From assembly GCA_030610855.1 (NCBI GenBank), contig JAUWQY010000001.1:1628-65627 (forward strand): 64,000 nucleotides of DNA, read 5' to 3'. Below the pieces are notes generated by a model. That model did no database searches, was not told where the DNA came from, and was given only the letters and a program-made list of their open reading frames with translations. The position numbers and the translations under genes were made by a program. The stretch comes from Dehalococcoidia bacterium. GTDB taxonomy: Bacteria > Chloroflexota > Dehalococcoidia > GIF9 > AB-539-J10. Positions 37,818 through 53,906 of the stretch are shown piece after piece. The number at the start of each line of letters is the position of its first letter. The first letter of the stretch is position 1.

Positions 37818-39725
37818 ATGAACAACCACGCAGCGCACGAATATACTGCCAAAGATATCCAGATCTTGGATGAGATCAAGGCCGTACGCTTACGACCGGG
37901 CATGTACATTGGAGGCACCGATCGGTACGGATTGCACCAATGCCTCTACGAGATAGTATATAACAGCATCGACGAAGCCATGGCCGGCTGCTGTGACCGA
38001 ATTGACATAACAATCCATGAGGATAATAGCGTCACTGTGACTGATAATGGCCGAGGTATCCCTACAGAAACTATCCCGGGAGAAAGCATCACAGCTCTGC
38101 AAGCAGTGATGACTCGCTTGCATGCCGGAGCTAAGTTCAGCGAGCATGTCTACGGCGTATCCAGCGGCCTGCACGGCGTTGGCGCCTCGGTAGTAAATGC
38201 CCTGTCCTCCTGGCTTAATGTTGAGATTAAGCGCCAGGGGAAAATTCACCGCCAGGAATACGAGCGGGGCATTCCCAAAGGCGACGTAGAAATCACCGGG
38301 GATTCCCAGGATACAGGCACCTCCATTACATTCCTTGCCGATGAGAAAATCTTCGAGGACATTGAATATGATTCCGACATGGCCTGTCAGCGATTAAGGG
38401 AACTGGCTTACCTCAACAAAGGGGTGGGAATAGCTCTCAAGGACGAGAGAAACAATCAGGAGAGAACGTTCTACTTCGATGGGGGCATAGCCAGTTTCGT
38501 CCGCCGCCTGAATAGAAACAGAGGCGTTGTTCACCCCTATCCTATTTATGTCTCCGCTATGATAAATAGCACGATAATCGAAGCAGCTATGCAGTATAAC
38601 GATAGCTTCACAGAATCCACTATCTCCTTTGCCAACTGCGTGAATACGAGAGACGGCGGTAGCCACCTTACCGGCTTCCGCTCAGCATTGACTCGAGTTT
38701 TCAACGATTATGCCCGGAACGCTAAACTCCTAAAGGATACTGATCCCAACCTAACCGGGGAGGATGTGCGCGAAGGGGCAGTTGCCATCATCAGCGTGAA
38801 GCTGCCCCAGCCCCAGTTTGAGGGGCAAACTAAGGCAAGATTGGGGAATCCCGAGGTAAAGAGTCAGGTCGAGTCGGCGGTGGCAAACAGCTTGGCCCTC
38901 TACCTTGAGCAGCACCCGAGCGAGGCCAGGGCAATCATAGAGAAGTGCCTCACCGCCGCCAAAGCCAGAGAGGCGGCACGCAAGGCTCGCGATCTCGTCT
39001 TGAAGAGAAACAGCTTCGAAGCATCAACTCTGCCAGGAAAGCTGGCTGATTGTTCCGAGAAAGAGCCGGCACAATGCGAACTTTACCTTGTCGAAGGCCC
39101 CTCAGCCGGCGGCTCAGCTAAGCAAGGGCGAGACCGCGCATTTCAAGCTATTCTCCCCCTGAGAGGCAAGATACTTAATGTGGAGAAGGCTGCCAAAGAA
39201 AAGATCATAGCGCATGAAGAACTGAGAGCCATTGTCACAGCACTGAAAGCAAGTACCGACGACCAGTTCGATAGCTCCAAACTTCGTTACCATAAGGTAA
39301 TCATCATGACCGATGCCGATGTGGACGGCTCGCACATCCGTACTTTGCTCCTTACCTTCTTTTTCCGCCATATGATGGAGTTAATCAACCAGGGCTATCT
39401 CTACATTGCTCAACCACCCCTCTATCGCATCAAGTCGGGTAAACAGGAATTCTGGCTTTACTCTGACCGGGAAAAGGAGCAAAAACTCAGATCACTCAAG
39501 TCAGACAAAGTGGACATCCAGAGATACAAAGGACTGGGCGAAATGAGTCCGGAACAACTATGGGCGACAACTATGAACCCCGCTAACAGAACCTTGCTCC
39601 AAGTACAGGTAGAGGATGCTATAGCCGCCGACCAGACCTTTCGTATGCTGATGGGCGATGAAGTTCTGCCGCGCAAGAGATTCATCCAGGCCCATGCTCA
39701 AAGTGTGAGAAACCTCGATATCTAG
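37818..39725 (+). CDS. gyrB: DNA gyrase subunit B
   Basis: GHKL ATPase N-terminus, TOPRIM (LYLVEGPSAGGSAKQGRDR) and a gyrB-specific C-terminus. 635 aa. Confidence 0.9.
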   Translation: MNNHAAHEYTAKDIQILDEIKAVRLRPGMYIGGTDRYGLHQCLYEIVYNSIDEAMAGCCDRIDITIHEDNSVTVTDNGRGIPTETIPGESITALQAVMTRLHAGAKFSEHVYGVSSGLHGVGASVVNALSSWLNVEIKRQGKIHRQEYERGIPKGDVEITGDSQDTGTSITFLADEKIFEDIEYDSDMACQRLRELAYLNKGVGIALKDERNNQERTFYFDGGIASFVRRLNRNRGVVHPYPIYVSAMINSTIIEAAMQYNDSFTESTISFANCVNTRDGGSHLTGFRSALTRVFNDYARNAKLLKDTDPNLTGEDVREGAVAIISVKLPQPQFEGQTKARLGNPEVKSQVESAVANSLALYLEQHPSEARAIIEKCLTAAKAREAARKARDLVLKRNSFEASTLPGKLADCSEKEPAQCELYLVEGPSAGGSAKQGRDRAFQAILPLRGKILNVEKAAKEKIIAHEELRAIVTALKASTDDQFDSSKLRYHKVIIMTDADVDGSHIRTLLLTFFFRHMMELINQGYLYIAQPPLYRIKSGKQEFWLYSDREKEQKLRSLKSDKVDIQRYKGLGEMSPEQLWATTMNPANRTLLQVQVEDAIAADQTFRMLMGDEVLPRKRFIQAHAQSVRNLDI

Positions 39726-39861
39726 CCACCCGGCTTCTCGGTCCGGGTCTGCGTGACATCATGGCAACCCGCCGCCAACGACCTCGTTTTCATCTACCAT
39801 CGTACTGTTCCGGAAGCTAGTACTTGAAGCAGGTAATCGCGCAGCTGAGTTTAGGCCTCAG

Positions 39862-40467
39862 CTATCTCGAAGATGGCAGGTAGATCTTCTGTTCTGTTAT
39901 GTATTCTTCTACTTCCGCGGGCACGAGATAACGAATGGACAACCCCTGGCCTACGCGGTGACGGATTCCCGAAGAGCTAATCTCGATTACAGGCATATCC
40001 AGCTTAACGACTCTGTCCGGTAGCTCAGGAATTGACGTTTCTAAGTGCTTCAGATCCTTTGTGCCTAATCTAGGGGCAACGACGAACCTGCATATTTGAA
40101 CTAATCTCCTGGGTTCCTTCCACAAAGGTAGCTCGGCCAGGGTATCGCGCCCGACGATGAAGAAAAGGCTTGCTTCGCTGCCTAGCTGCTCTCTCAGTAT
40201 CATCATGGTATCCACGGTGTAAGAGGGACCGGACCGCTCCACCTCGAGAGTACAGAGCTTGAAATGAGGATTGTTCCCTATGGCACGCCGCACCATCTCC
40301 ACTCTGTGCATTGCAGGGGAGATATGTCTGTCTAGCTTGAGCCAGGGCTGCCCGGCAGGCACGAAAAGAACCTCGTGCAATCCTAGCCTTATTCGTGCTT
40401 CCTCAGCGACAATGAGATGCCCTATGTGTATAGGATCAAATGTGCCGCCAAGGACGCCAATATTCAC
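39862..40467 (-). CDS. nadD: nicotinate-nucleotide adenylyltransferase
   Basis: GGTFDPIHIGH motif. Confidence 0.9.
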   Translation of the reverse strand: MNIGVLGGTFDPIHIGHLIVAEEARIRLGLHEVLFVPAGQPWLKLDRHISPAMHRVEMVRRAIGNNPHFKLCTLEVERSGPSYTVDTMMILREQLGSEASLFFIVGRDTLAELPLWKEPRRLVQICRFVVAPRLGTKDLKHLETSIPELPDRVVKLDMPVIEISSSGIRHRVGQGLSIRYLVPAEVEEYITEQKIYLPSSR

Positions 40468-40471
40468 TGCT

Positions 40472-41545
40472 CTATCTTCTCGGCTTGGGGCGGAATACTG
40501 CTATTTGAGGATCGGAGGTTGTTTCCTCAGCCTGCCTTCCCTGCTCCACCGTCTCCATCGCTCTTCTCACCAATTCTAACACAGCTTGGCCGCTAACGGC
40601 AGAGATGTAGAAGACAGGCACCTCAAGTTCATCGAGCTTTTGCCTGACCTCAGACACACCAGCCTGCGCCTGGGGCAAATCCACCTTGTTTACGGCCACG
40701 ATTCTTGGCTTCCGCGTCAAGTCCGGTTTGTATAGGGCTATCTCTCGATCCAGTTGACTCAGGTCCTCCATCACCATCGGCGAACTGCCATCGAGCAAGA
40801 GAATCAGTAGCTTAGTTCTCTCAGCATGGCGCAGAAAGCCGTTTCCCAATCCTTTACCAAGATGGGCACCTGCAACAAGGCCAGGGATTTCAGCAACAAC
40901 AAAATCCCTCCTGTCGCCTGGCATGACTCCCAAAACCGGCTCGCGCGTAGTAAAGGGGTAATCCGCAATCTCCGGTTTGGCTTTCGATATGCTGGATAGC
41001 AAAGTCGATTTCCCCGAGTTGGGATGGCCGACGATACATATATCGGTAACGGGCTTGAGCTCCAGGACAATACATCGCTCTTCTCCTGCTTTACCCTGGG
41101 TAGCTACCTCAGGAGCCTGGTTCACAGCGGTGGCAAAACGAACGTTGCCCAGTCCTCCCCGCCCCCCCCTGGCCACCACGATCTCTTGCCCTGGAGTGCT
41201 CAAATCAGAGAGCAGTGTCTCCATCCCGGAGTCACCGTCTGCGAACACCATCGTGCCCACCGGCATGGGAATAGTTAGATCCTCCCCTTTCTTACCCCGC
41301 TTCCGCCATCCGCTTCCGTGGTCACCATTACCAGCGCGAAATTCCTGCCGCTGCCTCATCAAGCTTAGATCATCTATATCAGGACTGGCAACGATGGTCA
41401 CACTACCACCATCTCCCCCGTCTCCCCCATCGGGACCGCCGAAAGGAACGTATTTCTCCCTCCGAAAGCTAACACAGCCATATCCACCATATCCACCCCT
41501 CACTATGATCTCTCTTCTGTATAGCATAACTAAATAGCCTAACAT
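40472..41545 (-). CDS. obg: GTPase Obg
   Basis: Gly-rich Obg fold (GGDGGDGG) and G-domain (GHPNSGKSTLL). Confidence 0.9.
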   Translation of the reverse strand: MLGYLVMLYRREIIVRGGYGGYGCVSFRREKYVPFGGPDGGDGGDGGSVTIVASPDIDDLSLMRQRQEFRAGNGDHGSGWRKRGKKGEDLTIPMPVGTMVFADGDSGMETLLSDLSTPGQEIVVARGGRGGLGNVRFATAVNQAPEVATQGKAGEERCIVLELKPVTDICIVGHPNSGKSTLLSSISKAKPEIADYPFTTREPVLGVMPGDRRDFVVAEIPGLVAGAHLGKGLGNGFLRHAERTKLLILLLDGSSPMVMEDLSQLDREIALYKPDLTRKPRIVAVNKVDLPQAQAGVSEVRQKLDELEVPVFYISAVSGQAVLELVRRAMETVEQGRQAEETTSDPQIAVFRPKPRR

Positions 41546-41673
41546 AAACTTAAGTATATTAATAAGTTAATACTACTAATCATAAGCAATATTATGGTGA
41601 TGGCAGTATATAGTGAGAAGGGTCAGGGTCTGGAAGCGAACTTCGCCCGGAAAAGCAACAGCTTATTCACAAA
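41546..41673. other. AT-rich (~70% AT) segment with a TTATTCACA DnaA-box adjacent to the dnaA 3' end: candidate oriC/DUE element
   Basis: The 95-nt stretch 41546-41640 is far more AT-rich than the rest of the window. TTATNCACA match at 41664-41672. Only one box found. Confidence 0.3.
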
Positions 41674-43032
41674 TCAGTATCGGTTCTGCACAGGTTGTTG
41701 CTTGTTTCTATGGGTCTTCCCGGCATTGATCTTCTCTTTCATTTCGGCGATTTGATTAGAGAGAGTAGGGTTAACATTCAATTCGCCAGCTATCTTCTCG
41801 TAGCCATGAAGGATCGTGGCGTGGTTTCTGCCGCCCAATTGTCTGCCGATTTCGCTTAGAGAGCAGTCGCGCTCCTCGCGTATGAGATAGATGGCTACGT
41901 GTCGTGCCAGGGTAGTCTTCCTATCCCTTTTCTTGCCAATCAGGTCTTCCGTCGACAGATCGAAATGGTCCGCTACTACTTGCAGGAGCATCTTCATGTC
42001 TTGCTTACGGATCGGGCCTGTCAATAACTTGTTGATTGTCTGTGGAGTGAGCTTAGCACCGGTCAGTTTGGCCTGGGCAGTCAGGTAAACCAGGGCACCT
42101 TCAAGCTGGCGGACGTTCCCGCATACCTTCTGCGCTACAACGTGCAGCACTCCTTCGAGTTGATGGCTCATCGCCTTTTCTGTCTTGGCCCGCAGAATAT
42201 CGATGCGGGTTTCAAGATCCGGCGGTTGTATGTCAACAACAAGACCTCCTTCGAGGCGTGATTTAAGCTTGCTACTAAGTGGCTGCATATCTCCAGGAGC
42301 GCAATCAGCAGTGATGACGATTTGACGGTTATTGCTGTATAGCTCGTTGAAGGTATGGAAGAAGCATTGCAGGGTTTGTTTCTTGTCGATCAAGAAGTGA
42401 ACGTCGTCAAACAGCAGGACATGGATACTTCTGAATTTGCTGCGGAACTTGTCAACTTGGTTATCTCTCACAGCTGCAACAAATTCGTTGGCGAATTGCT
42501 CCGCAGTAGTGTAGGCTGCCCGCAGTCCATTGTTTATGGTTAGATGCCCGATGGCGTGGAGTAGATGGGTCTTACCTTGTCCTGTGCTGCTGTGAATGAA
42601 AAGAGGGTTATAACTGGCTCCTGGGTTCTCAGCTACTTCTACAGCGGCAGCATAAGCCAGACGATTGAAATCGCTGACAACAAGGTTATCGAACGTGTAC
42701 TTTGGGTTGAATCTGTACTGCGCAGCTTTGGTGCTTGTCCCGCCGTCGGTCTGATGGGCCAGGGGGCTTGCTGATGGCTGTTCGTGATTGTGAACCTGGA
42801 ACTGCACATCGACATCCTTGCCCATAATGGCAATCAAAGTCTTCCTCACCAGGGGATAAAGGCGCCTGGACAGCCATTCAGCGACAAAAACGTTGGAGAC
42901 ACTGACGACGAAGATACTGTTGTCGTAGCTTAGACCCTGGCTATCACTGAGCCAGGTTGCATAATTCGCCTTGCTGACCTGTATTTGAAGGTCCCCTAGA
43001 ACTCTCTTCCAAATCTCTTTCGCTGACTGCAA
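41674..43032 (-). CDS. dnaA: chromosomal replication initiator protein DnaA
   Basis: AAA+ Walker A GQGKTHLLHAIG and C-terminal DnaA-box-binding domain. TTG start. Confidence 0.9.
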   Translation of the reverse strand: MQSAKEIWKRVLGDLQIQVSKANYATWLSDSQGLSYDNSIFVVSVSNVFVAEWLSRRLYPLVRKTLIAIMGKDVDVQFQVHNHEQPSASPLAHQTDGGTSTKAAQYRFNPKYTFDNLVVSDFNRLAYAAAVEVAENPGASYNPLFIHSSTGQGKTHLLHAIGHLTINNGLRAAYTTAEQFANEFVAAVRDNQVDKFRSKFRSIHVLLFDDVHFLIDKKQTLQCFFHTFNELYSNNRQIVITADCAPGDMQPLSSKLKSRLEGGLVVDIQPPDLETRIDILRAKTEKAMSHQLEGVLHVVAQKVCGNVRQLEGALVYLTAQAKLTGAKLTPQTINKLLTGPIRKQDMKMLLQVVADHFDLSTEDLIGKKRDRKTTLARHVAIYLIREERDCSLSEIGRQLGGRNHATILHGYEKIAGELNVNPTLSNQIAEMKEKINAGKTHRNKQQPVQNRY

Positions 43033-44158: not shown

Positions 44159-44776
44159 CTACGCCCGCTTTCGACGCCGCTGTCCTTTCCTCAACAATGA
44201 GTAAATTCCCTCTACTTGCCGTCTTGTCTCGTCCAGCGAACCATCATTATCAATGACGAAGTCGGCCGACCTGGTTTTTTCCTCAAGAGGAAGCTGGGAT
44301 CTCATCCTGTTCCGGGCATCGTCCCGGCTTAGTCCTTTTTCCTCTAATCGTCTTAACTGGGTCTGTTCACTGGCAGAAACAACGATCGTCTTATCCACAG
44401 ATATAGGGAGAGCGGCTTCATGCAGTAACGGAATGTCCTTGACAATAAGAGCATCGGGATCAAGGCTGTTGATCTCCTCTGTAATCCTCTCGTCCTCCTT
44501 AACCACCTCCGGATGAACAATCTGATTTAGCCTGGCCACCTTTTCCTTGTTGGAGAATACTATATCGGCCAGCTTTTGGCGATTGAGGGCCAGGTCTTCG
44601 TTTAGGAAATCGTTTCCGAAACACTCTACTATTTCTTTCCAGGCCTTTGAGTGAGGACGGACCACCTGCCGGGCCAACTCATCCCAATCAATTATGTAAG
44701 CCCCCAGTTGTTTGAAAAGACCGGCTACCGTGCTTTTGCCAGTGCCTATACTTCCTGTAAGACCGACAATAATCAT
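44159..44776 (-). CDS. coaE: dephospho-CoA kinase
   Basis: GLTGSIGTGKST P-loop. Confidence 0.9.
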   Translation of the reverse strand: MIIVGLTGSIGTGKSTVAGLFKQLGAYIIDWDELARQVVRPHSKAWKEIVECFGNDFLNEDLALNRQKLADIVFSNKEKVARLNQIVHPEVVKEDERITEEINSLDPDALIVKDIPLLHEAALPISVDKTIVVSASEQTQLRRLEEKGLSRDDARNRMRSQLPLEEKTRSADFVIDNDGSLDETRRQVEGIYSLLRKGQRRRKRA

Positions 44777-45495
44777 CAGTTCGCCCCTTGTGCGTCACCT
44801 CTCTTAGCTAACAACCTTCCATAGTAAGGAGATTTCGACAAATACAGGGCGGCCAAAGGATTGTGCCCTGTAACTCTGTCTTTTACCGCCAGCACTGTCA
44901 TGGGGACGCGACAGTATTTGATAAACAAGGTGTCGTGTCCGATGCAGAGTCCCAACATTATAGCCAGATCAACTTGCTCACTGTTGAGGACCTCTGCCTG
45001 AACGATGGGATTGCACAGGGATTCCCAGGTTTCAGGCCCCACAATATGCTGCTCAGGCTTGATGCCGACTCTCTGCTTAGGCGTAGCACCCGATTTGCAG
45101 CAAACAGAGACAACTTCAAATCCCTTGCTTTCCAGAACATCAGTGAGCATCTGAGCTTCTTTTCTCAGACCGAGGCAGAAAGCCATGCCCAATCTCTTGT
45201 AGCCACACTTAGAGGCAAACTGAGTTAGCTCTTCGATACGGGGGATCTTGGTTCTCATCCCCTCCTCCGTCCGTTCATAGCATTCAAACTCCTGTATCGA
45301 GGCCAGGCGCGCGAATTCCTTGACTGCCGGCTTGTCATATTCAGAGACAGCTCTATCGACAAGCTCGGGGAACAATCTCATGGGGCAGAAGGAAGGCGCT
45401 TCATCCAAGGTAGGTGCCTCATCAATCCCTATAGCAGGGCTACACACCACCTTGGCACATTTGGCACACATGGGATGTAGTGCGTCAGTCATCAT
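44776..45495 (-). CDS. Cys-rich hypothetical protein (possibly DUF1847-type metal-binding)
   Basis: 239-aa ORF with MCAKCAK N-terminus and several Cys pairs. Family assignment is from memory only. Confidence 0.6.
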   Translation of the reverse strand: MMTDALHPMCAKCAKVVCSPAIGIDEAPTLDEAPSFCPMRLFPELVDRAVSEYDKPAVKEFARLASIQEFECYERTEEGMRTKIPRIEELTQFASKCGYKRLGMAFCLGLRKEAQMLTDVLESKGFEVVSVCCKSGATPKQRVGIKPEQHIVGPETWESLCNPIVQAEVLNSEQVDLAIMLGLCIGHDTLFIKYCRVPMTVLAVKDRVTGHNPLAALYLSKSPYYGRLLAKRGDAQGAN

Positions 45496-45582: not shown

Positions 45583-45852
45583 TTATCGCCGAGCGCGCCA
45601 ACAACCATTTGGGTGGCCGCCTTTTGCGAGAAGGGTTCGGGCGCGCGAGCCCATGCCGCTAGCTATGACAACGCAAGCGCCTTGTTCAGTCAACCAGGCG
45701 GGAAGAAACCCGGGTCGATGTCCTGGCGACGGCATGACCTCCTTCCTCACGATCGCGGTAGTAACCTCATCAACGTCAGACAGGGAGAAATAGCTGTGAT
45801 GGCCACAGTCGGCAGCCATCTTCTGTTCTGCTATAGGCGCCGCCAATCTCAT
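45583..45852 (-). CDS. NifX/NifB-like (dinitrogenase FeMo-cofactor-binding fold) small protein
   Basis: MRLAAPIAE...GHHSYFSL.DVDE...VIASGMGSRARTLL matches the Nitro_FeMo-Co domain pattern. AGGAGGG RBS. Confidence 0.65.
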   Translation of the reverse strand: MRLAAPIAEQKMAADCGHHSYFSLSDVDEVTTAIVRKEVMPSPGHRPGFLPAWLTEQGACVVIASGMGSRARTLLAKGGHPNGCWRARR

Positions 45853-46093
45853 TTCCTATCCCTCCTGCAAGTGTCTTCTGAGGAGCAAGGAGGCATCTCA
45901 CAGCGTTCCGTCTTGCCACAACAGGTCGTGCCTGGTACAGAGCACTGGTCTTTAAGGCATGGGTAGCTGAGAGCAGCCTCTCTAGCTTGTCACTGCCACA
46001 CACCGGACATTGTACACCCTGGCTGTTAAGGGTGCGGAGAAACATCTCCGGAAGGCTCCCGCATTCCAAGCATTTGTACTCATAAATTGGCAT
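45776..46093 (-). CDS. FmdB-family zinc-ribbon protein
   Basis: MPIYEYKCLECGSLPE...CPVCGSDKLERLLSA is a CxxC...CxxC zinc ribbon. AGGAGGT RBS. Internal start at 46093 chosen. Its 3' end overlaps the next gene. Confidence 0.6.
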   Translation of the reverse strand: MPIYEYKCLECGSLPEMFLRTLNSQGVQCPVCGSDKLERLLSATHALKTSALYQARPVVARRNAVRCLLAPQKTLAGGIGNEIGGAYSRTEDGCRLWPSQLFLPV

Positions 46094-46205: not shown

Positions 46206-46985
46206 TCAAACAAGATAGCCTTTAGGACCAGGACGGCGACGCAATGTCTCCACAAGATCAAGCGGCCTGACTTCACGTCTTGGCGCTTCATATACAGTAA
46301 CTACATTCCGAAGATTGCTGAACTTGGCTCGAATGCTAGCTACATTTTCGGGCGGCAGTGGTTTCACCTTCGATGGGCGCAGGGGTGTGTTTATCTGCAC
46401 CTCGTCGGGCGAAATGCTACGGGCAAGCTCCGCTACCTTTTCGGCATAACCCTCATTAGTCTGCATAAACATTACCTGAAGGGCCAGTTTGCCCTGGTAT
46501 GCGCCCCTGAATCGCCTCATGCCATCCAATATGAGGTCAAAACGCAAGCCCGAGGCCGGCCTGTTGACTAAGGAAAAGAGCTCGTCGTTTGGTACATCCA
46601 GCTTGGCCACTACCACGTCAGCCCGGGCGAGGCGCTCCCTTACATCTTCGCGGAACATGAGAGAACCATTCGTGAGCACTGCTGTCGGCAAATCCAAAAT
46701 CGACCTTGCAAGCTCAATCGCCTCACCCAGGTTACTGGCCAGGGAGGGCTCACCCATGCCAGAGAAAGTGGCGTAGTCAGCATCTATCGGCCTAAGGGAC
46801 TCGATTTCACTGGTCAGTTGGTCCAAGCTGATGAATTCCTCTGGCTCGACGACAAAACGGGTGGTCTCACCTAACTGGCAATAGACGCAGTTGAAGGTAC
46901 AGATTTTCCTCTTGGCATTGAGAAGGTCTATACCCAGTGATCTGCCCAACCTCCATGAAGCAACAGGCCCGTAAACAAGTGCCAT
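46206..46985 (-). CDS. radical SAM domain protein
   Basis: CTFNCVYCQ CxxxCxxC motif and GMGEP motif. 259 aa. Subfamily not assignable by eye. Confidence 0.8.
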   Translation of the reverse strand: MALVYGPVASWRLGRSLGIDLLNAKRKICTFNCVYCQLGETTRFVVEPEEFISLDQLTSEIESLRPIDADYATFSGMGEPSLASNLGEAIELARSILDLPTAVLTNGSLMFREDVRERLARADVVVAKLDVPNDELFSLVNRPASGLRFDLILDGMRRFRGAYQGKLALQVMFMQTNEGYAEKVAELARSISPDEVQINTPLRPSKVKPLPPENVASIRAKFSNLRNVVTVYEAPRREVRPLDLVETLRRRPGPKGYLV

Positions 46986-47223: not shown

Positions 47224-47673
47224 TTAGTGCTTACGGTATGCTCTCTTCCAGGGCTCTCGTTTCGTTGCGATGTAGTCTCTTATGGCTGCTTGGAGCGTAT
47301 TCGCCGCCAGCAGAGCGCAATGCTCACTTTCGTCAGGCAGTCCGCCCAGGGCGTCCAGCACATCACGCTGCGTCATTTTCTGAGCTTCGCTGATGCTCTT
47401 GCCCTTGGCTATCTCTGTGACCATGCTGCCAGAGGCAATGCTGCTACCGCAGCCATCGGTCATAAAGGTGGCATCGACAATGGCATCATTGTTGACCTTG
47501 AGCCATATTTCCATTGTGTCACCGCAGGGGCCTGTCACTCTTGCGAATGCGCCGGCGTTCTGCATAACACCCACGTTCCTCGGGGCCATGGCATGGTCGA
47601 TTACTGCTTCAGAGTAGATCCTGCGGGCATCCGCCAAAATCAACTCCTGGAGTTCCTGAGAGTCAGCAGACAT
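47224..47673 (-). CDS. iscU: Fe-S cluster assembly scaffold, NifU/IscU N-terminal-domain type
   Basis: Three conserved Cys motifs: GPCGD, DGCGSSIASGS and EHCALLAA. Confidence 0.85.
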   Translation of the reverse strand: MSADSQELQELILADARRIYSEAVIDHAMAPRNVGVMQNAGAFARVTGPCGDTMEIWLKVNNDAIVDATFMTDGCGSSIASGSMVTEIAKGKSISEAQKMTQRDVLDALGGLPDESEHCALLAANTLQAAIRDYIATKREPWKRAYRKH

Positions 47674-47688: not shown

Positions 47689-48693
47689 TCATCTGCCACC
47701 AGCCGACACCACCTGGACCAGAGCTTCGCCCAGCCTGGTCACGATTTCATCGTCATAGCGTTCGATTTTACCCTCATCACAGAGTTTGGCTAGCTTGGGG
47801 TCTATGGGTAGCTGACCCAAGAACGGGGCATTGACGGCACGGGCTGTCTCTTCTCCCCGGCTCCGGCCAAAGACCTCAATCCTCTTATCTATCTCGGGTA
47901 CATACAGGTAACTCATATTCTCGACCACACCCAGAACGCGCTTCTCCATTTTCCGGACCATGTTCACCGCCTTGCGCACAATCATCTGAACCAGGTCCTG
48001 AGGGGTGAAAACGACGATTACCCCCGAAATCGGAAAGGACTGCATTAGTGTGAGCGGTGCGTCGGCAGTTCCCGGCGGCAGGTCAACAATTAGATAATCA
48101 AGCTTGCCCCAGAGCACGTCTTCACCAAACTGCTTGATGGTATTCCCAATTAGAGGGCCGCGCCAGATAATGGCATCATCCTCACTGGGTAGGAGAAGAT
48201 TGATAGACATGACTTCAATCCCTGACCCCGATAGTACCGGCAGAATTCCACCTTCGTTGCCACTGGGCCGAGCGCTGAGTCCGAACATCCTAGGTATGCT
48301 CGGGCCGGTAATATCAGCATCCAAAATGCCTACCTCATAGCCCTTACGCTTCAGGGCGATGGCGAGCAGACCTGATACCAGGGATTTGCCTACGCCTCCT
48401 TTACCGCTCATCACGGCAACAATGTGATCTATTTCGTTAAGGTCCTTTGCCTTGGCATCAGTATATTCAACATTCGCATCATTGACATCGGGCAGCTTCT
48501 CAATGACTTCCTTCGCCTTGGTCTTGATCCAGTCCTGTGCGTCTGGAATCAACCCCGTTGATGCCAGGGTGACGTTTACTTTCTCACCGGAAGCGGTGAC
48601 CTCACGCACCAGGTTCATCGCGACGATGCTGCGGTTGATACTAGGCACCAGTACTGCTTCCAGGCTCTCCCTTACTTGTTCTTCACTCGCCAC
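47689..48693 (-). CDS. apbC: Mrp/NBP35/ApbC-family Fe-S cluster carrier ATPase with N-terminal DUF59/MIP18 domain
   Basis: GKGGVGKS Walker A and CxxC. N-terminal MIP18-like segment. Confidence 0.9.
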   Translation of the reverse strand: MASEEQVRESLEAVLVPSINRSIVAMNLVREVTASGEKVNVTLASTGLIPDAQDWIKTKAKEVIEKLPDVNDANVEYTDAKAKDLNEIDHIVAVMSGKGGVGKSLVSGLLAIALKRKGYEVGILDADITGPSIPRMFGLSARPSGNEGGILPVLSGSGIEVMSINLLLPSEDDAIIWRGPLIGNTIKQFGEDVLWGKLDYLIVDLPPGTADAPLTLMQSFPISGVIVVFTPQDLVQMIVRKAVNMVRKMEKRVLGVVENMSYLYVPEIDKRIEVFGRSRGEETARAVNAPFLGQLPIDPKLAKLCDEGKIERYDDEIVTRLGEALVQVVSAGGR

Positions 48694-48716
48694 AAGTTTC
48701 CCTCCATTTCCATCTA

Positions 48717-49055
48717 TCAGTGGTCACAGATGTTACCCTCTGTAGCTAGTTGGCCGTTGAGATAACTCAGAACCGCCTTCTCTGGGTCACTTTCCACAGT
48801 GCCGACAACGACCCCGATGCAGTGCTGCTGGAAAAGGCTCTGCGCCCGGGATCCCATGCCACCGGCAATCACAAAGGCAACGCCTTGTTCTGCCAGCCAC
48901 TCCGGAAGAAGCCCCGGCTGGTGGCCCGGCGACGGTATAAGCTCTTTCCTGATTATTTCCCTCTTATTTTCATCAACATCGATCAGTGCGAAATATTCAC
49001 AATGACCAAAGTGCGGCGATACTATCCCGCCGTTTACCGGTATCGCATACCTCAT
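48717..49055 (-). CDS. NifX/NifB-like protein
   Basis: MRYAIPVNGGIVSPHFGHCEYFALIDVD...VIAGGMGSRAQ matches the family pattern. GGAGG RBS 5 nt before the ATG at 49055. Confidence 0.8.
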   Translation of the reverse strand: MRYAIPVNGGIVSPHFGHCEYFALIDVDENKREIIRKELIPSPGHQPGLLPEWLAEQGVAFVIAGGMGSRAQSLFQQHCIGVVVGTVESDPEKAVLSYLNGQLATEGNICDH

Positions 49056-49091
49056 AGTAACCTCCATCTATTGTTTTTTATTTTTGGTCCC

Positions 49092-49328
49092 TTAGTGCCG
49101 CCGGCAGGTGTCCCCGGTAGAGCAGGGCGGTGCGTTACAACGCTCGGTCTGGCCACAGCAGGTAGTGCCAGGAGCCTGACTACTCGTTCTGATTACATAG
49201 GATGAGGAAATGAGTCTCTCCAACTTTGCACTGCCACAATCAGGGCAGCGCGGGGCCTGCTCAGTACCTCGGACGAACACCTCTGATACCTTGCCGCATT
49301 CGAGACATCTGAAGTCGTGAATTGGCAT
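49092..49328 (-). CDS. FmdB-family zinc-ribbon protein with extra C-terminal Cys cluster
   Basis: MPIHDFRCLECG...CPDCGS, then a CCGQTERCNAPPCSTGDTC tail. Confidence 0.7.
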   Translation of the reverse strand: MPIHDFRCLECGKVSEVFVRGTEQAPRCPDCGSAKLERLISSSYVIRTSSQAPGTTCCGQTERCNAPPCSTGDTCRRH

Positions 49329-49377: not shown

Positions 49378-49572
49378 TCATAAACCGACGCTTCGGGTCG
49401 GACTGCTCAGCATACAAGAGCTGCCGGAAGTGGCAACGAAGGCTGAGAAAACACGGCGAGAGCTCTCTGTCCCGCACCTGGGATATTCTACTTCCCCGTC
49501 GCTATTGCTCATACTCCGTCGCAGGTCAAAACGTTCACCACATTTAAGACACTCGTATTCATAGATTGCCAC
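49378..49572 (-). CDS. FmdB-family zinc-ribbon protein
   Basis: MAIYEYECLKCGERFD...YPRCG. Confidence 0.65.
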   Translation of the reverse strand: MAIYEYECLKCGERFDLRRSMSNSDGEVEYPRCGTESSRRVFSAFVATSGSSCMLSSPTRSVGL

Positions 49573-49578
49573 GGTGTG

Positions 49579-50454
49579 TCACCCCTTGCTACCGTTCGTT
49601 AACCTTATCGAGAGTGTATGCCACATTCTTTGTATCTCCCGAGTGACGTTACCATTAGTGTATTCCACTACTGGCACTCCTTGAACAATTGACTCAGTAA
49701 CAACATTATCAAAAGGAATCCTCCCTGCTATCTCAACTCCCTGGCTAAGGCATTGGCTCTCAATTTGCCGTGTGTTCTCCTCGTTCAAGTCATGCTTGTT
49801 GATGCAGACCATGGCAGGAACCCCGAAGTGGCGGCAGAGGCCAAGCACTCTCTCCAAATCGTGCATCCCAGAAAGGGTCGGCTCGGTAACCAGAAGGGCT
49901 AACGCTGCCCCAGAGAGAGATGAAATGACGGGGCAGCCGATGCCGGGCGGGCCATCACTAATAATATAATCGAAACCCTGCTCTTCAGCAATCTGTTTAG
50001 CCTGCTGCCTGACTACTGCCACCAGTTTCCCTGAGTTCTCTTGAGCTATTCCCAGTCGGGCATGAACAAGAGGGCCATACTTGGTATCGGAAATGAACCA
50101 GTATCCGGCCATATTGTCCCTCATTGTTATAGCTTCAGTTGGGCACACATGTGAACAGAAGCCGCAGCCTTCACAGGATACTGCGTCAACCCGGAAATCC
50201 TTGATAGCGTTGAAGCGGCACAGCTCCTGGCACAGGCCACACTCATTGCACCCGCTTTCATCTATGTGAGCTACCTGCCCACTCCAGAACTCGTTTCTTG
50301 CCTTCTCCGAAGGGCTGAGTAGCAAATGAAGGTCTGCCGCGTCAACATCACAGTCGGCAAGCACCTTTCTTTCCGCCAGAGCCGCCAGCGAGCCGACGAT
50401 GATGGTCTTCCCGGTGCCCCCTTTACCGCTTAGTACTACGACTTCTTTCATCAA
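49579..50454 (-). CDS. MinD/ParA-superfamily P-loop ATPase with inserted 2x[4Fe-4S] ferredoxin domain
   Basis: GKGGTGKT deviant Walker A. CNECGLCQELC and CEGCGFCSHVCP ferredoxin motifs inserted mid-protein. Confidence 0.85.
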   Translation of the reverse strand: MMKEVVVLSGKGGTGKTIIVGSLAALAERKVLADCDVDAADLHLLLSPSEKARNEFWSGQVAHIDESGCNECGLCQELCRFNAIKDFRVDAVSCEGCGFCSHVCPTEAITMRDNMAGYWFISDTKYGPLVHARLGIAQENSGKLVAVVRQQAKQIAEEQGFDYIISDGPPGIGCPVISSLSGAALALLVTEPTLSGMHDLERVLGLCRHFGVPAMVCINKHDLNEENTRQIESQCLSQGVEIAGRIPFDNVVTESIVQGVPVVEYTNGNVTREIQRMWHTLSIRLTNGSKG

Positions 50455-51289
50455 CTATCTCCGCGACCTTATCAAAGAGCTGAAGGAAGATGCTCTTCCA
50501 CTGCGGCATGCCATCGACCAAAGTTATACCACGTGAGTAGAGGCGGGCGATCTCCATATCCAAAGGAATGGTAAGCAGGATAGGTATGTTCTCTTTCTCA
50601 CAGTACTCTTCCACTTTGCTATCACCTACACCGGCACGGTTGAGCACAACGCCGCATGGGACGCCGAGTTCTCTCACCGTTTCGACGGCAAGGGCCAGGT
50701 CATTCAGCCCAAATGGAGTTGGCTCAGTTACCAGAATACAGAAATCGCTCCCCTTGATTGCCTCTACTACCGGACAGGATGTGCCCGGCGGAACATCTAT
50801 GATGACTGTATCATCGTTATTGGCATACTCCTTCACTTTTCTGATAATCGGTGGCGCCATTGCCTCACCCACCGTGAGTTTGCCATGGACAAAGCCCACA
50901 GCATCCGCGTGTCCCCACTCAACAACTCCTGTCTCGCGGCTCTCCTCAGTGATAACCTTCTCTGGGCAGAGGTAACAGCAGGCACCGCACCCGTGACAGA
51001 GCTGAGGGAAGGTCAGCACGTGCTTGCCCAGTACGGCAATGGCATGATAGGCACACACCTCAGCACACTTGCCACAGTAGGTGCACTTCTCTTCGTCTAC
51101 GTTGGGAACCGAAATTGATACGGCTTTGCTACCGGTGATTTCGGGTTTCAGAAACACGTGGTCGTTTGGCTCCTCCACATCACAGTCGAGCAGTTTAACC
51201 TTATAGTCACCGCTCAGCGAAAGAGCCAGGCTAGTAGCGACCAGCGTCTTTCCTGTGCCACCCTTCCCACTGGCAACAGATATTATCAT
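50423..51289 (-). CDS. MinD/ParA-superfamily P-loop ATPase with inserted ferredoxin domain (paralog)
   Basis: GKGGTGKT. CTYCGKCAEVC and CHGCGACCYLCP. Overlaps the downstream paralog by 32 nt. Confidence 0.85.
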   Translation of the reverse strand: MIISVASGKGGTGKTLVATSLALSLSGDYKVKLLDCDVEEPNDHVFLKPEITGSKAVSISVPNVDEEKCTYCGKCAEVCAYHAIAVLGKHVLTFPQLCHGCGACCYLCPEKVITEESRETGVVEWGHADAVGFVHGKLTVGEAMAPPIIRKVKEYANNDDTVIIDVPPGTSCPVVEAIKGSDFCILVTEPTPFGLNDLALAVETVRELGVPCGVVLNRAGVGDSKVEEYCEKENIPILLTIPLDMEIARLYSRGITLVDGMPQWKSIFLQLFDKVAEIVDERSRSTKR

Positions 51290-51290
51290 T

Positions 51291-51509
51291 CTATTCCCGA
51301 ATCATCTTGGCACCACACTTGGGGCACGTTAAATCGTAGCAGGGAATACCTACCTCGTGAGGGATATTTGCACCACAACTCGGGCAAACACAGCTGCCAC
51401 TAGGGCCTGCCCCAGGTCGGTTTCCACCCATCCTTCCCATACCCCGGCCACGTCCTGATCCTCTTCCCGGCCCCTGCCCATAAGGTCCCGTGCCATCTCC
51501 TCTAGGCAT
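51291..51509 (-). CDS. DUF5320-type Gly-rich N-terminus fused to a CxxC...CxxC zinc ribbon
   Basis: MPRGDGTGPYGQGPGRGSGRGRGMGRMG then CVCPSCG...CPKCGAKM. Confidence 0.65.
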   Translation of the reverse strand: MPRGDGTGPYGQGPGRGSGRGRGMGRMGGNRPGAGPSGSCVCPSCGANIPHEVGIPCYDLTCPKCGAKMIRE

Positions 51510-51512
51510 AAA

Positions 51513-51710
51513 TCACCTCGCTGTTTTTCTCTTCCCTTCTAGTGATGTATCCGACTCTGCGCTCAACTCAGTAATGAAGTAGGGATAGTCATCAGTGCGG
51601 TTCTCCTTTCCACACTGAAAGCAAGTTTGTATTATCTTCTTAACTTCCTCCTCTGTTACTTCCTTGCCCCCGTATTCCAGGTAACCATAACTCCTCCCTT
51701 CCGAATTCAA
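51513..51710 (-). CDS. questionable small ORF (TTG start, single CxxC)
   Basis: Fills an otherwise empty 200-nt slot in a tightly packed operon, but lacks an ATG or SD. Contains CFQCG. Confidence 0.25.
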   Translation of the reverse strand: MNSEGRSYGYLEYGGKEVTEEEVKKIIQTCFQCGKENRTDDYPYFITELSAESDTSLEGKRKTAR

Positions 51711-51717
51711 GCTTTGC

Positions 51718-51942
51718 TTACTCTATACCTGGCAACCCGCAGACTCCAGAGCTGCAAGTGGGGCAACTCATATCTGCATCTTCGGTTCCACTTGAGCTAT
51801 GGCTAAAAAATGAGGAAATGAGCCTCCTCGGATTTGGAGCGTTACATTCAGGGCAGTTTATACCAGAAATACCTTCGCCAACGCTTTGGCGAACCTCGAA
51901 TCTCTGCCCACATTGGTTACATTGATACTCATAAATAGGCAT
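51718..51942 (-). CDS. FmdB-family zinc-ribbon protein with C-terminal Cys-rich tail
   Basis: MPIYEYQCNQCGQRFE...CPECNA, then a CPTCSSGVCG tail. Confidence 0.7.
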   Translation of the reverse strand: MPIYEYQCNQCGQRFEVRQSVGEGISGINCPECNAPNPRRLISSFFSHSSSGTEDADMSCPTCSSGVCGLPGIE

Positions 51943-51945
51943 GTT

Positions 51946-52503
51946 TTAGCTCTCCTTCCCCAACTCTGCGATGCGACGTTGAATCTCACTTAGCTGCTGC
52001 GCCATCATCTGAGTCTGAGATTTGAGCGCCTCTATCTCTTCCTCGGGGCTCATTGCTTGGGGCGCTGCCTGAGGTATTATTCCTGGCCCCATGCCTCTGC
52101 CCATTCCCATTCCTCGACCCATACCCATACCCATGCCGCGACCCATGCCAGAATGAGAGCCTACGTTTGGTTGGGTGCTTGGTTGTAGCCTACCTGTATT
52201 ATAGGCTTCAACAGCATCCTTTATCCTGCCTGAAACACCGGTGATTACTTGGATCCCCGCTGCCGAAAGGGTCTGGTAAGCGTTGGGCCCACAATTACCC
52301 GTGAGCACGAACTCCACGCCTTTGCCGGCAATCATCTGGGCAGTGCTGATGCCTGCCCCACCGGCAGCCATGGCGCTCGAATTCTCCAAAGTCTCAAACT
52401 CCATGCTCTGGGGGTCAACGATGATGAAGTATTGACACCTTCCAAAACGAGGATCTACGTCAGCATCCAAACCAGGAGCTGTTGCCGATACCGCAATTCT
52501 CAT
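51946..52503 (-). CDS. NifX/NifB-like domain fused to a DUF5320-type Gly/Met/Arg repeat and coiled coil
   Basis: N-terminus MRIAVSATAPGLDADVDPRFGRCQYFIIVD...VLTGNCG is NifX-like. Then (GMGR)n repeats and a SPEEEIEALKSQTQMMAQQLSEIQRRIAELGK coiled coil. Confidence 0.8.
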   Translation of the reverse strand: MRIAVSATAPGLDADVDPRFGRCQYFIIVDPQSMEFETLENSSAMAAGGAGISTAQMIAGKGVEFVLTGNCGPNAYQTLSAAGIQVITGVSGRIKDAVEAYNTGRLQPSTQPNVGSHSGMGRGMGMGMGRGMGMGRGMGPGIIPQAAPQAMSPEEEIEALKSQTQMMAQQLSEIQRRIAELGKES

Positions 52504-52521: not shown

Positions 52522-52839
52522 TTACTCCGTCTCCAGTTCTTTTATTCTAGCATCTATTTGCTCCAACTGTCCCTTTACTGCTTCTGCCTGGTCCCTCAGG
52601 AAATCCAGCTCCTGCTCCCGAGTCATCTGAGGAGCGTAGGGGTAGGCTCCTGGCGCTGCTCCCATAGGTGCCCCCGCATAACTATATGGCGCAGGACCTG
52701 CATAAGGCATGCCCCTTCCAAACCCATATCCCCTGCCGAAACCATACCTGCGCCCTGTACCCCAAGGGCTGCAAAAACCTCTCCCTCCTCCCGTCATTGG
52801 TCCCATTCCCCGTGGTCCCGTTCCATCAAACCCTGGCAT
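52522..52839 (-). CDS. DUF5320-family protein (Gly-rich N-terminus, coiled-coil C-terminus)
   Basis: MPGFDGTGPRGMGPMTGGGRGFC...REQELDFLRDQAEAVKGQLEQIDARIKELE. Confidence 0.75.
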   Translation of the reverse strand: MPGFDGTGPRGMGPMTGGGRGFCSPWGTGRRYGFGRGYGFGRGMPYAGPAPYSYAGAPMGAAPGAYPYAPQMTREQELDFLRDQAEAVKGQLEQIDARIKELETE

Positions 52840-52900: not shown

Positions 52901-53104
52901 CTACTTACGAAGCTCCTCCAGCCTCTTCTTCACTTCGTCTAGCTCGCTCTCGAGCAATCTCTCCTCGTCTTCAAGCATGGCAACTCTTCCTCTCTGGACA
53001 TAGCTCCCCAGGGGGTAACCATATCCATATCCTCCATAGGGATACCTGTAGGGGATTCTATACTGCCAACCCCAAGGGTGCCGAGATCCGAACCAACGCC
53101 ACAT
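52901..53104 (-). CDS. DUF5320 C-terminal coiled-coil fragment (second half of a split or frameshifted gene)
   Basis: Tyr/Gly-rich WQYRIPYRYPYGGYGYGYP followed by EDEERLLESELDEVKKRLEELRK. Frame is -1 relative to the N-terminal fragment. Confidence 0.4.
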   Translation of the reverse strand: MWRWFGSRHPWGWQYRIPYRYPYGGYGYGYPLGSYVQRGRVAMLEDEERLLESELDEVKKRLEELRK

Positions 53105-53133
53105 TTTCTCATCTGCTCGAGAAATCCTAATAC

Positions 53134-53412
53134 TTACCACCAAGGGTATCCATAAGGTCCCCGTCTTCGCAAGCCACGACCCAAGCCACGACCCAAGCCA
53201 CGACCGAAGCCGCGACCGAAGCCACGGCCAAAGCCATAGCCCCACCTGGGCCGTACCGGTGCCGGGTAACCGTAACCATAAGCGTACGGATCACCAGGCA
53301 TTGGGTTGGCAAAGCCCGGCCTACCAAAGCCAGCGCAGAAACCAGCCGCCCTACCGGTCATCGGACCTGAGCCCATCGGTCCTGTTCTATCTCCAAATGG
53401 CATCTTTATCAC
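53134..53412 (-). CDS. DUF5320 N-terminal Gly/Arg-rich fragment (first half of a split or frameshifted gene)
   Basis: MPFGDRTGPMGSGPMTGRAAGFCAGFGRPG...(GFGRGLGR)n. Stops at TAA 53134-53136 without a coiled coil. Confidence 0.6.
   Translation of the reverse strand: MIKMPFGDRTGPMGSGPMTGRAAGFCAGFGRPGFANPMPGDPYAYGYGYPAPVRPRWGYGFGRGFGRGFGRGLGRGLGRGLRRRGPYGYPWW
53171..53242 (-). repeat. six tandem 12-nt coding repeats (AAGCCACGACCC variants) encoding (GRGF/GRGL)n
   Basis: Direct tandem units are visible in the sequence. A similar CCCATNCC(G)CGA periodicity at about 52101-52150 encodes (GMGR)n. Confidence 0.6.
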
Positions 53413-53435: not shown

Positions 53436-53906
53436 TCACGATCTGCCGCCGCGAAATCTCCTGCCACATCGTCGGCCCAAACCAAACGGGGGTAGAGGCG
53501 TGGGCTGTATATCCCCACTGAAGCATACGGGGCAGGACAAAGGCAGTCTCTGTGCCCTGGCCTCAAAAGACACATTCCACTCATGCCCGTCATTGCCGCA
53601 TCTAAAACGGCGCTGGGCAAGCTCGAAATTGCCTCCTTCGATTTGAATTGCCTTGCCATTGATCAGAGCGTCGGCCAGCTTTTGCCGGGCCGATTCCAAT
53701 ATACGATGAAAGGTCGGCCTGGAAATCCACATTCGCTGGGCACACGCTTCCTGTTCCAGTCCCTCCAAATCCTTGAGACGGATAGACTCAAGTTCCTCAA
53801 GCGAAAGACGAACACCCTGTAAAGCACTTACGGGAATACCCACCGGTCTGAAGGAGTCTATGCTCGGCAGCTGGGCAACGCATCGCAACTTCGTTGGCCT
53901 GGCCAT
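53436..53906 (-). CDS. DUF134-family predicted DNA-binding protein with C-terminal Cys/His zinc-ribbon-like extension
   Basis: MARPTKLRCV...RLSLEELESIRLKDLEGLEQEACAQRMWISRPTFHRIL is DUF134 (sigma region-4-like HTH). AAAGGAGG RBS. First gene of the co-directional array. Confidence 0.8.
   Translation of the reverse strand: MARPTKLRCVAQLPSIDSFRPVGIPVSALQGVRLSLEELESIRLKDLEGLEQEACAQRMWISRPTFHRILESARQKLADALINGKAIQIEGGNFELAQRRFRCGNDGHEWNVSFEARAQRLPLSCPVCFSGDIQPTPLPPFGLGRRCGRRFRGGRS

Follow-up and report, generated by a model that had tools for sequence, protein, structure and literature searches.

The subject of this report is a cluster of small genes, all on the minus strand, in a 64-kb window (the whole stretch of DNA analyzed here, taken from contig JAUWQY010000001.1 of a Dehalococcoidia bacterium, to which all coordinates refer unless a related locus is named). 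Two open reading frames (ORFs) of this cluster combine parts of the protein family DUF5320 with other modules. One (51946..52503) encodes a protein of 185 amino acids (aa), in which a NifX-like domain is followed by a tail and a helix of the DUF5320 type; the other (51291..51509) encodes a 72-aa protein, in which the DUF5320 head and tail are followed by a Cys-rich ribbon. In the direction of transcription the cluster starts with a DUF134 gene, followed by three small DUF5320-type genes, the 185-aa ORF, a gene for an FmdB ribbon and a doubtful 65-aa ORF; it continues with the 72-aa ORF, two MinD/ParA-type ATPase genes, two further FmdB ribbons and a second NifX-like gene, after which come Mrp/NBP35, NifU-like and radical SAM genes. 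The two fused genes are genuine and occur widely among anaerobic bacteria, and by its gene content the locus is an orp-type (Orange protein, ORP) cluster of an anaerobic Dehalococcoidia-like bacterium.

There is essentially no literature on DUF5320, a family spread widely among anaerobic bacteria, which is mentioned in passing only and has been the subject of no experimental study. Both fused architectures are already present in public databases, where NCBI names the proteins 'DUF5320 family protein' and 'NifB/NifX family molybdenum-iron cluster-binding protein'. What is new here is the reading of DUF5320 as a modular family, its association with orp-type clusters in five or more lineages, and the match of its tail to the tail of IssA (P. 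furiosus PF2025, Q8TZG9), a protein in which an IPR003731 NifX-like domain precedes a cationic, Gly-rich and disordered tail, the proposed binding site of anionic thioferrate (PMC5524996).

Fused and stand-alone DUF5320 genes

The original prediction read the ORF at 51946..52503 as a NifX-like domain joined to a (GMGR)n repeat and a DUF5320 coiled coil, and profile searches and structure prediction agree with it. The Pfam family Nitro_FeMo-Co (PF02579, IPR003731) covers residues 13-102 (E = 2e-24; 86.1 bits, cut-off 26.3), and DUF5320 (PF17253) matches residues 104-181 (E = 3.1e-11, 44.8 bits against a cut-off of 27), the latter over positions 21-99 of the 99 positions of the profile, with the head absent. 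The AlphaFold2 model contains a confident NifX fold over residues 1-110 (predicted local distance difference test score, pLDDT, above 85), disorder over residues 112-149 (pLDDT < 50) and a single helix over residues 153-184 (pLDDT 81-90). The protein can be divided into an ORP-type NifX-like (Nitro_FeMo-Co) domain (residues 1-112, 52168..52503), which ends in the junction motif P-N-V-G-S-H-S-G-M-G; a disordered cationic tail, delimited by pLDDT and composition (residues 113-152, 52048..52167), in which (GMGR)n is followed by a Pro/Ala/Gln stretch; and a C-terminal amphipathic helix, delimited by the AlphaFold2 model and the heptads (residues 153-185, 51949..52047), which is the coiled-coil part of DUF5320. 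The repeat itself, GMGRGMGMGMGRGMGMGRGMG, occupies residues 119-139 and is encoded by DNA tandem repeats of period 6/12/18/24 at 52088-52149. The segment 104-152 contains 29% Gly, 16% Met, 8% Arg and 0% Asp and Glu, with an isoelectric point (pI) of 12. The helix comprises four regular heptads with the a/d pattern I-L-T-M-L-I-I-L, and a hidden Markov model (HMM) built from it matches the stand-alone DUF5320 gene at 52522-52839 (E = 1.6e-6) and, weakly, the one at 52901-53104 (E = 0.023). Among solved structures, the NifX domain is closest to the Orange protein of D. gigas (2wfb, E = 1.2e-21, residues 2-113), followed in the PDB ranking by 1rdu and 1eo1 (TM1816, MTH1175), with further sequence matches to 2yx6 and 1o13; these matches and the confident model assign it the alpha/beta fold of the solved members.

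The 72-aa protein had been predicted to join the Gly-rich DUF5320 head to a CxxC ribbon in place of a coiled coil, which is also what we find: a DUF5320-type head (residues 1-14) and a Gly/Arg tail (15-39) precede a Cys6-His ribbon (40-72), and there is no coiled coil. Its first 21 residues are identical at 14 of 21 positions to the N-terminus of the full DUF5320 gene at 52522..52839, and the head motif MPxxD(G/R)TGP starts exactly three genes in the 64-kb window. Compared with the Pfam DUF5320 profile, the protein falls below the threshold (12.8 bits, with the cut-off at 27; E = 0.28; residues 1-29 on profile positions 1-29); many of its orthologues have a precomputed PF17253 match. Residues C40, C42, C45, H51, C62 and C65 are invariant in the family and C57 is nearly so, which gives the ribbon signature CxCPxCG-x4-H-x2-G-x-PC-x4-CPxCG with six Cys and one His. 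The predicted structure is a small beta ribbon (pLDDT ~80), and residues 37-72 are its only ordered region.

The same prediction had in effect counted this ribbon among FmdB modules. Proteins of that family resemble the 72-aa protein in being small and in having two CxxC knuckles, and FmdB genes are located in the same cluster. The ribbon matches Zn_ribbon_8 (PF09723) with E = 0.26 and 11.7 bits against a cut-off of 34.4, no better than its score against a dozen generic ribbons, and has no match in NCBIfam, including TIGR02605. The N-terminal FmdB signature MPxYEYxCxxCG is absent from the 72-aa protein, the CxxC knuckles alone align with the adjacent FmdB gene in BLASTP, and a Foldseek comparison of the model with the PDB returned only generic zinc-ribbon/rubredoxin-like matches (E ≥ 0.75), none of them significant. 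The ribbon is not FmdB-type; it forms a module of its own, CxCPxCG…H…C…CPxCG. The ORF therefore provides no fusion evidence for FmdB, which is linked to DUF5320 by gene neighbourhood only.

A database search for the same fusion architectures, proposed earlier as a check, found them widely. The 185-aa fusion has at least 120 full-length homologues with 67-91% identity, all containing both PF17253 and PF02579 and coming from JGI, ENA, NCBI and Logan assemblies, and for the 72-aa protein 836 homologues, 72-76 aa long, were detected. When 32 homologues of the fusion are aligned, the (GMGR)n region varies only by whole repeat units with the downstream helix always in frame; close relatives, among which the repeat number differs, are 177 to 205 aa long. 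Over the last 45 codons, the window differs from two syntenic loci at 15-20 third positions compared with 3-10 differences at positions 1 and 2. An origin of the fusions in frameshift or assembly errors in repetitive DNA is effectively refuted and retains practically no probability: the junctions do sit in tandem repeats and a neighbouring DUF5320 gene appears split over two frames, but the same architectures recur across hundreds of assemblies of independent origin, which represent several sources and phyla, every indel is in frame, the codon-position pattern is that of coding sequence, and relatives keep the apparently split gene as two genes, the first with its own stop and the second with its own start.

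The three small genes that precede the fusion are paralogues of its tail. The gene at 52522..52839 is a complete stand-alone DUF5320 (105 aa; PF17253 with 80.1 bits over profile positions 1-99) with the head, an aromatic Gly/Arg/Pro tail and the coiled coil. The gene at 53134..53403 (89 aa from the ATG at 53403; 48.8 bits, profile positions 1-55) has the head and the tail, has no coiled coil and ends in ...GPYGYPWW; its GFGR/GLGR repeat corresponds to a tandem repeat in the DNA (period 12, 5.6 copies, 53170-53236). The gene at 52901..53104 (67 aa, ATG at 53104; 24 bits, profile positions 35-99) has no head and consists of an aromatic tail and a coiled coil. The overlapping frames 53134-53412, with head and tail, and 52901-53245, with the helix, resemble a single frameshifted DUF5320 gene. 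We rejected this possibility because the stop after ...GLYGYPW(W) is shared by three related Dehalococcoidia loci (L006, L007 and L008), and two of these, L006 and L007, keep the downstream small gene (MW.W..HPW.W...PYGYPYGGYGYGYP...helix) with its own start, preceded in L006 by a strong ribosome-binding site. The orthologue of 52901-53104 in L006/L007 is 61% identical, and head-less proteins of tail and helix, 54-70 aa long, are common in databases. The two frames thus represent two conserved genes (53134-53403 and 52901-53104), not one split gene.

The locus encodes five paralogous tail proteins, composed of head and tail; tail and helix; head, tail and helix; NifX, tail and helix; and head, tail and ribbon. 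DUF5320 is modular, with the tail as the sole constant part among head, tail and helix; whereas the Pfam model (PF17253) treats the three as one unit, here they occur in five combinations. In related loci (L006 7627-7982; L008 ~7224-7590; L010 6645-6989), an aromatic tail and a DUF5320-like helix come after a head of a second type, MP[NK]G[YF]GRG..GFGFRG..PPWPYVG[LM]GRGGLPRC; these gene calls have no family in the precomputed Pfam annotation.

Fused and separate forms across bacteria

The NifX-like domain and DUF5320 are fused in the window, in the related Dehalococcoidia loci L006-L008, in a locus from Synergistota (Synergistales; L010) and in one from WOR-3 (L011), whereas a stand-alone DUF5320 and an ORP-type NifX are separate genes of one cluster in Omnitrophota (L001, 52% identical) and Zixibacteria (L004, 46%). 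The unfused NifX of the latter two ends directly after the junction motif P-S-V-x-S-[HK]-F-G-[ML], at the place where the tail of the fusion starts.

The distribution of architectures was assessed by an exhaustive HMMER search of 1.84 billion cluster representatives, which yielded 207 clusters (50% identity) with E<1e-30. Domains were counted in the best 150 of these 207 representatives using small HMMs and motifs. NifX with tail and helix was the most frequent arrangement (46 proteins), followed by NifX with tail (38), NifX with helix (12), NifX with tail, with or without helix, and a 2×[4Fe-4S] ferredoxin (11), and NifX with tail and ribbon (2). When a profile of tail and helix was compared with 5.8 billion proteins, the best 120 matches contained PF17253 alone or PF17253 with PF02579 only, so among them the DUF5320 tail and helix are not promiscuous. 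The recurrent fusion partner found for tail and helix is the ORP/IssA-type cluster carrier only, to which a ferredoxin or a Cys-rich ribbon is sometimes added.

On this pattern of fusion and separation, NifX-like and DUF5320 are a true Rosetta-stone pair. The prediction that fusions link DUF5320, NifX-like and FmdB modules consequently survives in part: the link between NifX and DUF5320 stands, the two being fused or separate in different phyla and the DUF5320 part non-promiscuous, and the link to FmdB falls with the assignment of the ribbon. Ribbons of the 72-aa type are fused to NifX and tail in three proteins (P0286, P0368 and P0275; E 8e-20 to 1e-6), so the second Rosetta link connects NifX with this ribbon and not with FmdB. 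One of the three, P0275, is a giant protein of 1516 aa on a 30-kb JGI metagenome contig; it has four to five NifX-like domains and three 72-aa-type ribbons, together with acidic linkers and long repeats of PTAGM/TTAGMP. In P0271, P0274, P0293, P0321, P0339, P0341 and P0350, a 2×[4Fe-4S] ferredoxin domain is appended after NifX and tail. The helix is also kept in 4 of the 11 ferredoxin-bearing fusions counted; proteins of this kind join the carrier to an electron-transfer module.

The gene neighbourhood and the ORP complex

In the ORP complex of D. vulgaris, Orp3 and Orp4 are ATPases with [4Fe-4S] ferredoxin motifs, Orp5 is a small Fe-S protein, Orp8 is the NifX-like ORP, and Orp9 is MrpORP, which passes Fe-S clusters to Orp3 and Orp4 in vitro; MrpORP is found at a cell pole and the complex is described as 'putatively involved in cell division' (PMC6345978). 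The locus has in common with this complex two MinD-type ATPases with 2×[4Fe-4S], an Mrp/NBP35 ATPase and a second NifX-like domain, and its NifX subunit nearest ORP is encoded beside the two ATPases and Mrp. Both ATPases, at 50423..51289 (a P-loop ATPase with Pfam matches to ParA, CbiA and Fer4) and at 49579..50454 (CbiA, ParA and Fer4), are of the MinD/ParA type, have a 2×[4Fe-4S] ferredoxin insert as in Orp3/Orp4 and, according to their translations, begin with the deviant Walker A motif GKGGTGKT. The Mrp/NBP35 gene (47689-48693) is assigned from the ORF translation and from Pfam matches (FeS_assembly_P/ParA) of the syntenic gene in L006. The second NifX-like gene (48717..49067), recognized from its translation, is of the Cys/His-rich HFGHCE type, a motif described for MrpORP's Di-Nase domain (PMC6345978), and has orthologues in L001, L004, L006, L008 and L010. 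Mrp and the HFGHCE-type NifX are separate genes here (47689-49067), whereas in Desulfovibrio they form one fusion, MrpORP; they represent another fusion/separation pair in the same cluster.

The differences from the ORP complex concern DUF5320 and the regulator. ORP itself has one domain only, whose end coincides exactly with the start of the tail in the fusion, and has neither a Gly/Arg tail nor a coiled coil, and no DUF5320 subunit is reported in the complex as published (PMC6345978). The regulator of the ORP system is OrpR, a PAS-domain, sigma54-dependent protein; in the window, no PAS-sigma54 activator of the OrpR type is located beside the cluster, and DUF134 is found there instead. In WOR-3 (L011, 9609-11261), a PAS-sigma54 activator whose domains are arranged as published for OrpR adjoins the cluster that contains the fusion. 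This OrpR-like neighbour together with the same set of genes indicates that the fusion occupies the place of ORP in an orp-type cluster. Counting the fused and separate forms, orp-type clusters with DUF5320 occur in no fewer than five lineages of bacteria, namely Dehalococcoidia, Synergistota, WOR-3, Omnitrophota and Zixibacteria.

The DUF134 gene (53436..53906; Pfam PF02001, 85.1 bits), the first of the cluster, encodes a putative DNA-binding regulator in which a Cys/His ribbon near the C-terminus precedes a Gly/Arg tail (PPFGLGRRCGRRFRGGRS). L006-L008 (Dehalococcoidia) and L004 (Zixibacteria; gene at 5325-5816) keep this tail, which is longer in L004; the regulator and the DUF5320 proteins thus share a tail of one kind. 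The regulators at the side of the cluster vary by lineage: DUF134 is present in Dehalococcoidia and Zixibacteria, and a FUR gene is located directly upstream of the cluster in Omnitrophota (L001 6123-6623) and ~5 kb away in Synergistales (L010 1821-2345).

The FmdB-family zinc ribbon next to the fusion (51718..51942; Zn_ribbon_8 60.8 bits, TIGR02605 64.5 bits) has a Cys-rich C-terminus and is conserved in L006-L009. Two further genes of this type, at 49378-49572 and 49092-49328, have the N-terminal motif MPIxEYxCxxCG or nearly so, in the form VAIYEYECLKCG at the start of the former (from its translation) and MPIHDFRCLECG at 49293-49328 (a regular-expression match) in the latter, which has homologues in L006, L008 and L004. 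Orp5 is presumably a small Cys-rich protein, possibly FmdB-like. The cluster continues with a NifU/IscU-like gene (47224-47673), assigned from its translation and the Pfam match (NifU_N) of the syntenic L006 gene, and a radical SAM gene (46206-46985), assigned in the same way from syntenic genes in L001/L010 (Radical_SAM).

Several minor features of the region may be added. The spacer of ~200 bases between the FmdB gene and the 72-aa gene is taken up by the 65-aa ORF (51513-51710, TTG start), which has no Pfam match and no tblastn match in eleven related loci; we rejected it as a member of the system, and in all probability it is no gene. Two genes on the same strand, at 44776-45495 and 45776-46093, lie downstream of the one for radical SAM and may extend the cluster; one encodes a further FmdB-type ribbon (MPIYEYKCLECG...) and the other a Cys-rich 239-aa protein. 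gyrB (plus strand) and dnaA (minus strand) lie within 37818-43032, ~9-14 kb from the cluster, and the region may be near the replication origin.

The tails and their possible function

The five tails at the locus contain 0-1% acidic residues, 8-20% Arg/Lys and 20-44% Gly, with pI between 9.9 and 12. The medians for 28 fused and 113 stand-alone tails are ~30% Gly, ~10% Arg/Lys and ~2% acidic residues. The tails of the 185-aa and 72-aa proteins contain Met and no aromatic residues, and the remaining three are aromatic; an association of Met-type tails with NifX and of aromatic tails with the head was tested and found unsupported in a biased sample. The composition of the three aromatic tails (20-30% Gly, 9-15% cationic, 20-32% aromatic, 10-14% Pro) is close to that published for the tail of IssA (21% Gly, 10% cationic, 20% aromatic, 16% Pro, pI 10.7; PMC5524996), a likeness of composition and architecture and not a demonstrated homology.

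The fusion is in principle built in the same way as IssA, with a NifX-like domain followed by a disordered cationic Gly-rich tail. Unlike IssA, it has an acidic coiled-coil end and a NifX domain nearer to ORP than to MTH1175, the structural model used for IssA. IssA builds particles of 20-300 nm, Gly-rich tails of high pI are also known from the uncharacterised 'IssX' clade of non-thermophiles (PMC5524996), and the paper on the ORP complex itself points to IssA (PMC6345978). The IssA clade has been delimited (Vaccaro et al. 2017, supplementary figure 7) by the presence of IPR003731, fewer than 5 Cys, a whole-protein pI ≥9 and a Gly content of no less than 20% over the last 40 residues. Four close relatives of the fusion that have no helix (P0349, P0371, P0378 and P0383) fall within all of these limits; the fusion itself has the IPR003731 domain and only 2 Cys.

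From these findings we propose, tentatively, that the fusion is an oligomerising carrier or store for anionic metal-sulfide species, a reading we regard as plausible but by no means secure. NifX-like domains of the ORP/IssA type hold anionic inorganic metal-sulfur clusters non-covalently, and the domain of the fusion would hold or nucleate an anionic metal-sulfide species. Candidates are chains or clusters of Fe-S, or else a Mo/W-Cu-S cluster like that of ORP, which holds the anionic Mo-Cu-S cluster [S2MoS2CuS2MoS2]3- non-covalently. The acid-free, Arg-bearing tail, with its pattern (G-hydrophobic-G-R)n, could bind, neutralise and wrap this species, in the way proposed for the tail of IssA and thioferrate. 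The four-heptad helix would dimerise or oligomerise the fusion, multiplying the tails into a larger assembly, and would probably also pair with the stand-alone DUF5320 paralogues that bear the same helix. The 72-aa ribbon protein could supply a Cys/His metal site, and the two MinD-type 2×[4Fe-4S] ATPases, Mrp, NifU and the radical SAM enzyme may load or unload the cluster. Domain composition, disorder, the helix, conservation, synteny, fusion and separation across phyla, and the match of the tails to the published IssA figures are results of the analysis; the ligand, the oligomerisation and the partnership with the ATPases we infer.

Several points weigh against such a carrier or store. Gly/Arg tails with hydrophobic residues are known elsewhere to bind nucleic acids or to drive condensation, and a protein of the cluster that is itself a putative DNA-binding regulator, DUF134, has a similar tail. 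The tail of IssA contains Trp, Tyr and Phe, whereas that of the fusion contains Met. With an overall pI of 5.2 and 2% Gly in its last 40 residues, the fusion lies outside two of the limits of the IssA clade, because these residues form its acidic C-terminal helix. The metal or sulfide ligand is deduced by analogy, and for the ORP complex itself the literature offers no more than a putative role, in cell division (PMC6345978).

The proposal would extend the idea developed for IssA, in which a disordered tail captures anionic metal-sulfide species electrostatically, beyond the hyperthermophilic archaea and into mesophilic bacteria, and it would add candidate subunits to the poorly understood ORP complex. 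It makes the anonymous DUF5320 family testable, as a functional lead and not a surprise. One could speculate further, at long odds, that the bacteria form a mesoscale metal-sulfide storage body, in which DUF5320 tails, multiplied by the coiled coils, and the ORP/IssA-type NifX domain would make up a condensate or co-assembly of protein and mineral, similar to thioferrate, that corresponds to the IssA nanoparticle of archaea. The MinD/ParA-type 2×[4Fe-4S] ATPases might then build, dissolve or position the body with DUF5320 as their partner or adaptor, as McdB is for McdA, and DUF134 might sense its state through a tail of the same kind.

It is possible, if unlikely, that the DUF5320 proteins are instead partners or cargo adaptors of the two MinD/ParA-type ATPases, comparable to ParB, MinE or McdB. 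The tail would stimulate or tether the ATPases, the head or NifX would define the cargo, and a metal-sulfide body or the ORP complex would be positioned or partitioned. A disordered cationic region combined with a coiled coil is the layout of known ParA-partner proteins, DUF5320 genes share the cluster with two ATPases of this family in all five phyla sampled, and the deviant Walker A motif is present at the start of both ATPases in the window. The polar localisation of MrpORP and the putative involvement of the ORP complex in cell division (PMC6345978) agree with this notion, as does the size of the IssA bodies, 20-300 nm (PMC5524996). However, the 2×[4Fe-4S] inserts of the ATPases and the receipt of Fe-S clusters from Mrp in vitro suit cluster maturation better, and the ORP complex has been published without a DUF5320 subunit (PMC6345978). 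An interaction of DUF5320 with the ATPases is conjecture.

Quite unlikely is that the tails act independently of metal-sulfide chemistry, as RGG-like segments that bind RNA or DNA or undergo phase separation. The original prediction had described the Gly/Arg/Met-rich segments as flexible and possibly metal- or RNA-binding; they are indeed predicted to be disordered, and RNA binding is no more than a possibility. The RGG-like composition of the tails (~30% Gly, ~10% Arg/Lys, ~2% acidic) and their predicted disorder are compatible with nucleic-acid binding, and so is the similar tail of the DUF134 protein, conserved across phyla. In the examined samples, however, tail and helix are never fused to a nucleic-acid-binding domain; they are fused only to the metal-cluster carrier and, past the helix, to ferredoxin domains, and the tail also to the Cys-rich ribbon. 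All neighbouring genes concern Fe-S or metal handling, and an Rfam scan of the window detected no RNA family.

That the repeat is a passive linker, a flexible spacer between the carrier domain and the dimerisation helix whose likeness to the paralogous tails reflects slippage-prone GGN/ATG-rich DNA, is improbable, even though the underlying DNA is tandemly repeated and the repeat number is free to vary among close relatives (177 to 205 aa). NifX with tail is found without the helix in 38 of the best 150 representatives (some of them maybe fragments or proteins with a helix missed by the HMM), and in such proteins the tail cannot be a linker. The composition of the tail is also constant across phyla and the five paralogues, with periodic Arg, almost no acidic residues, and Met or aromatic residues between the glycines.

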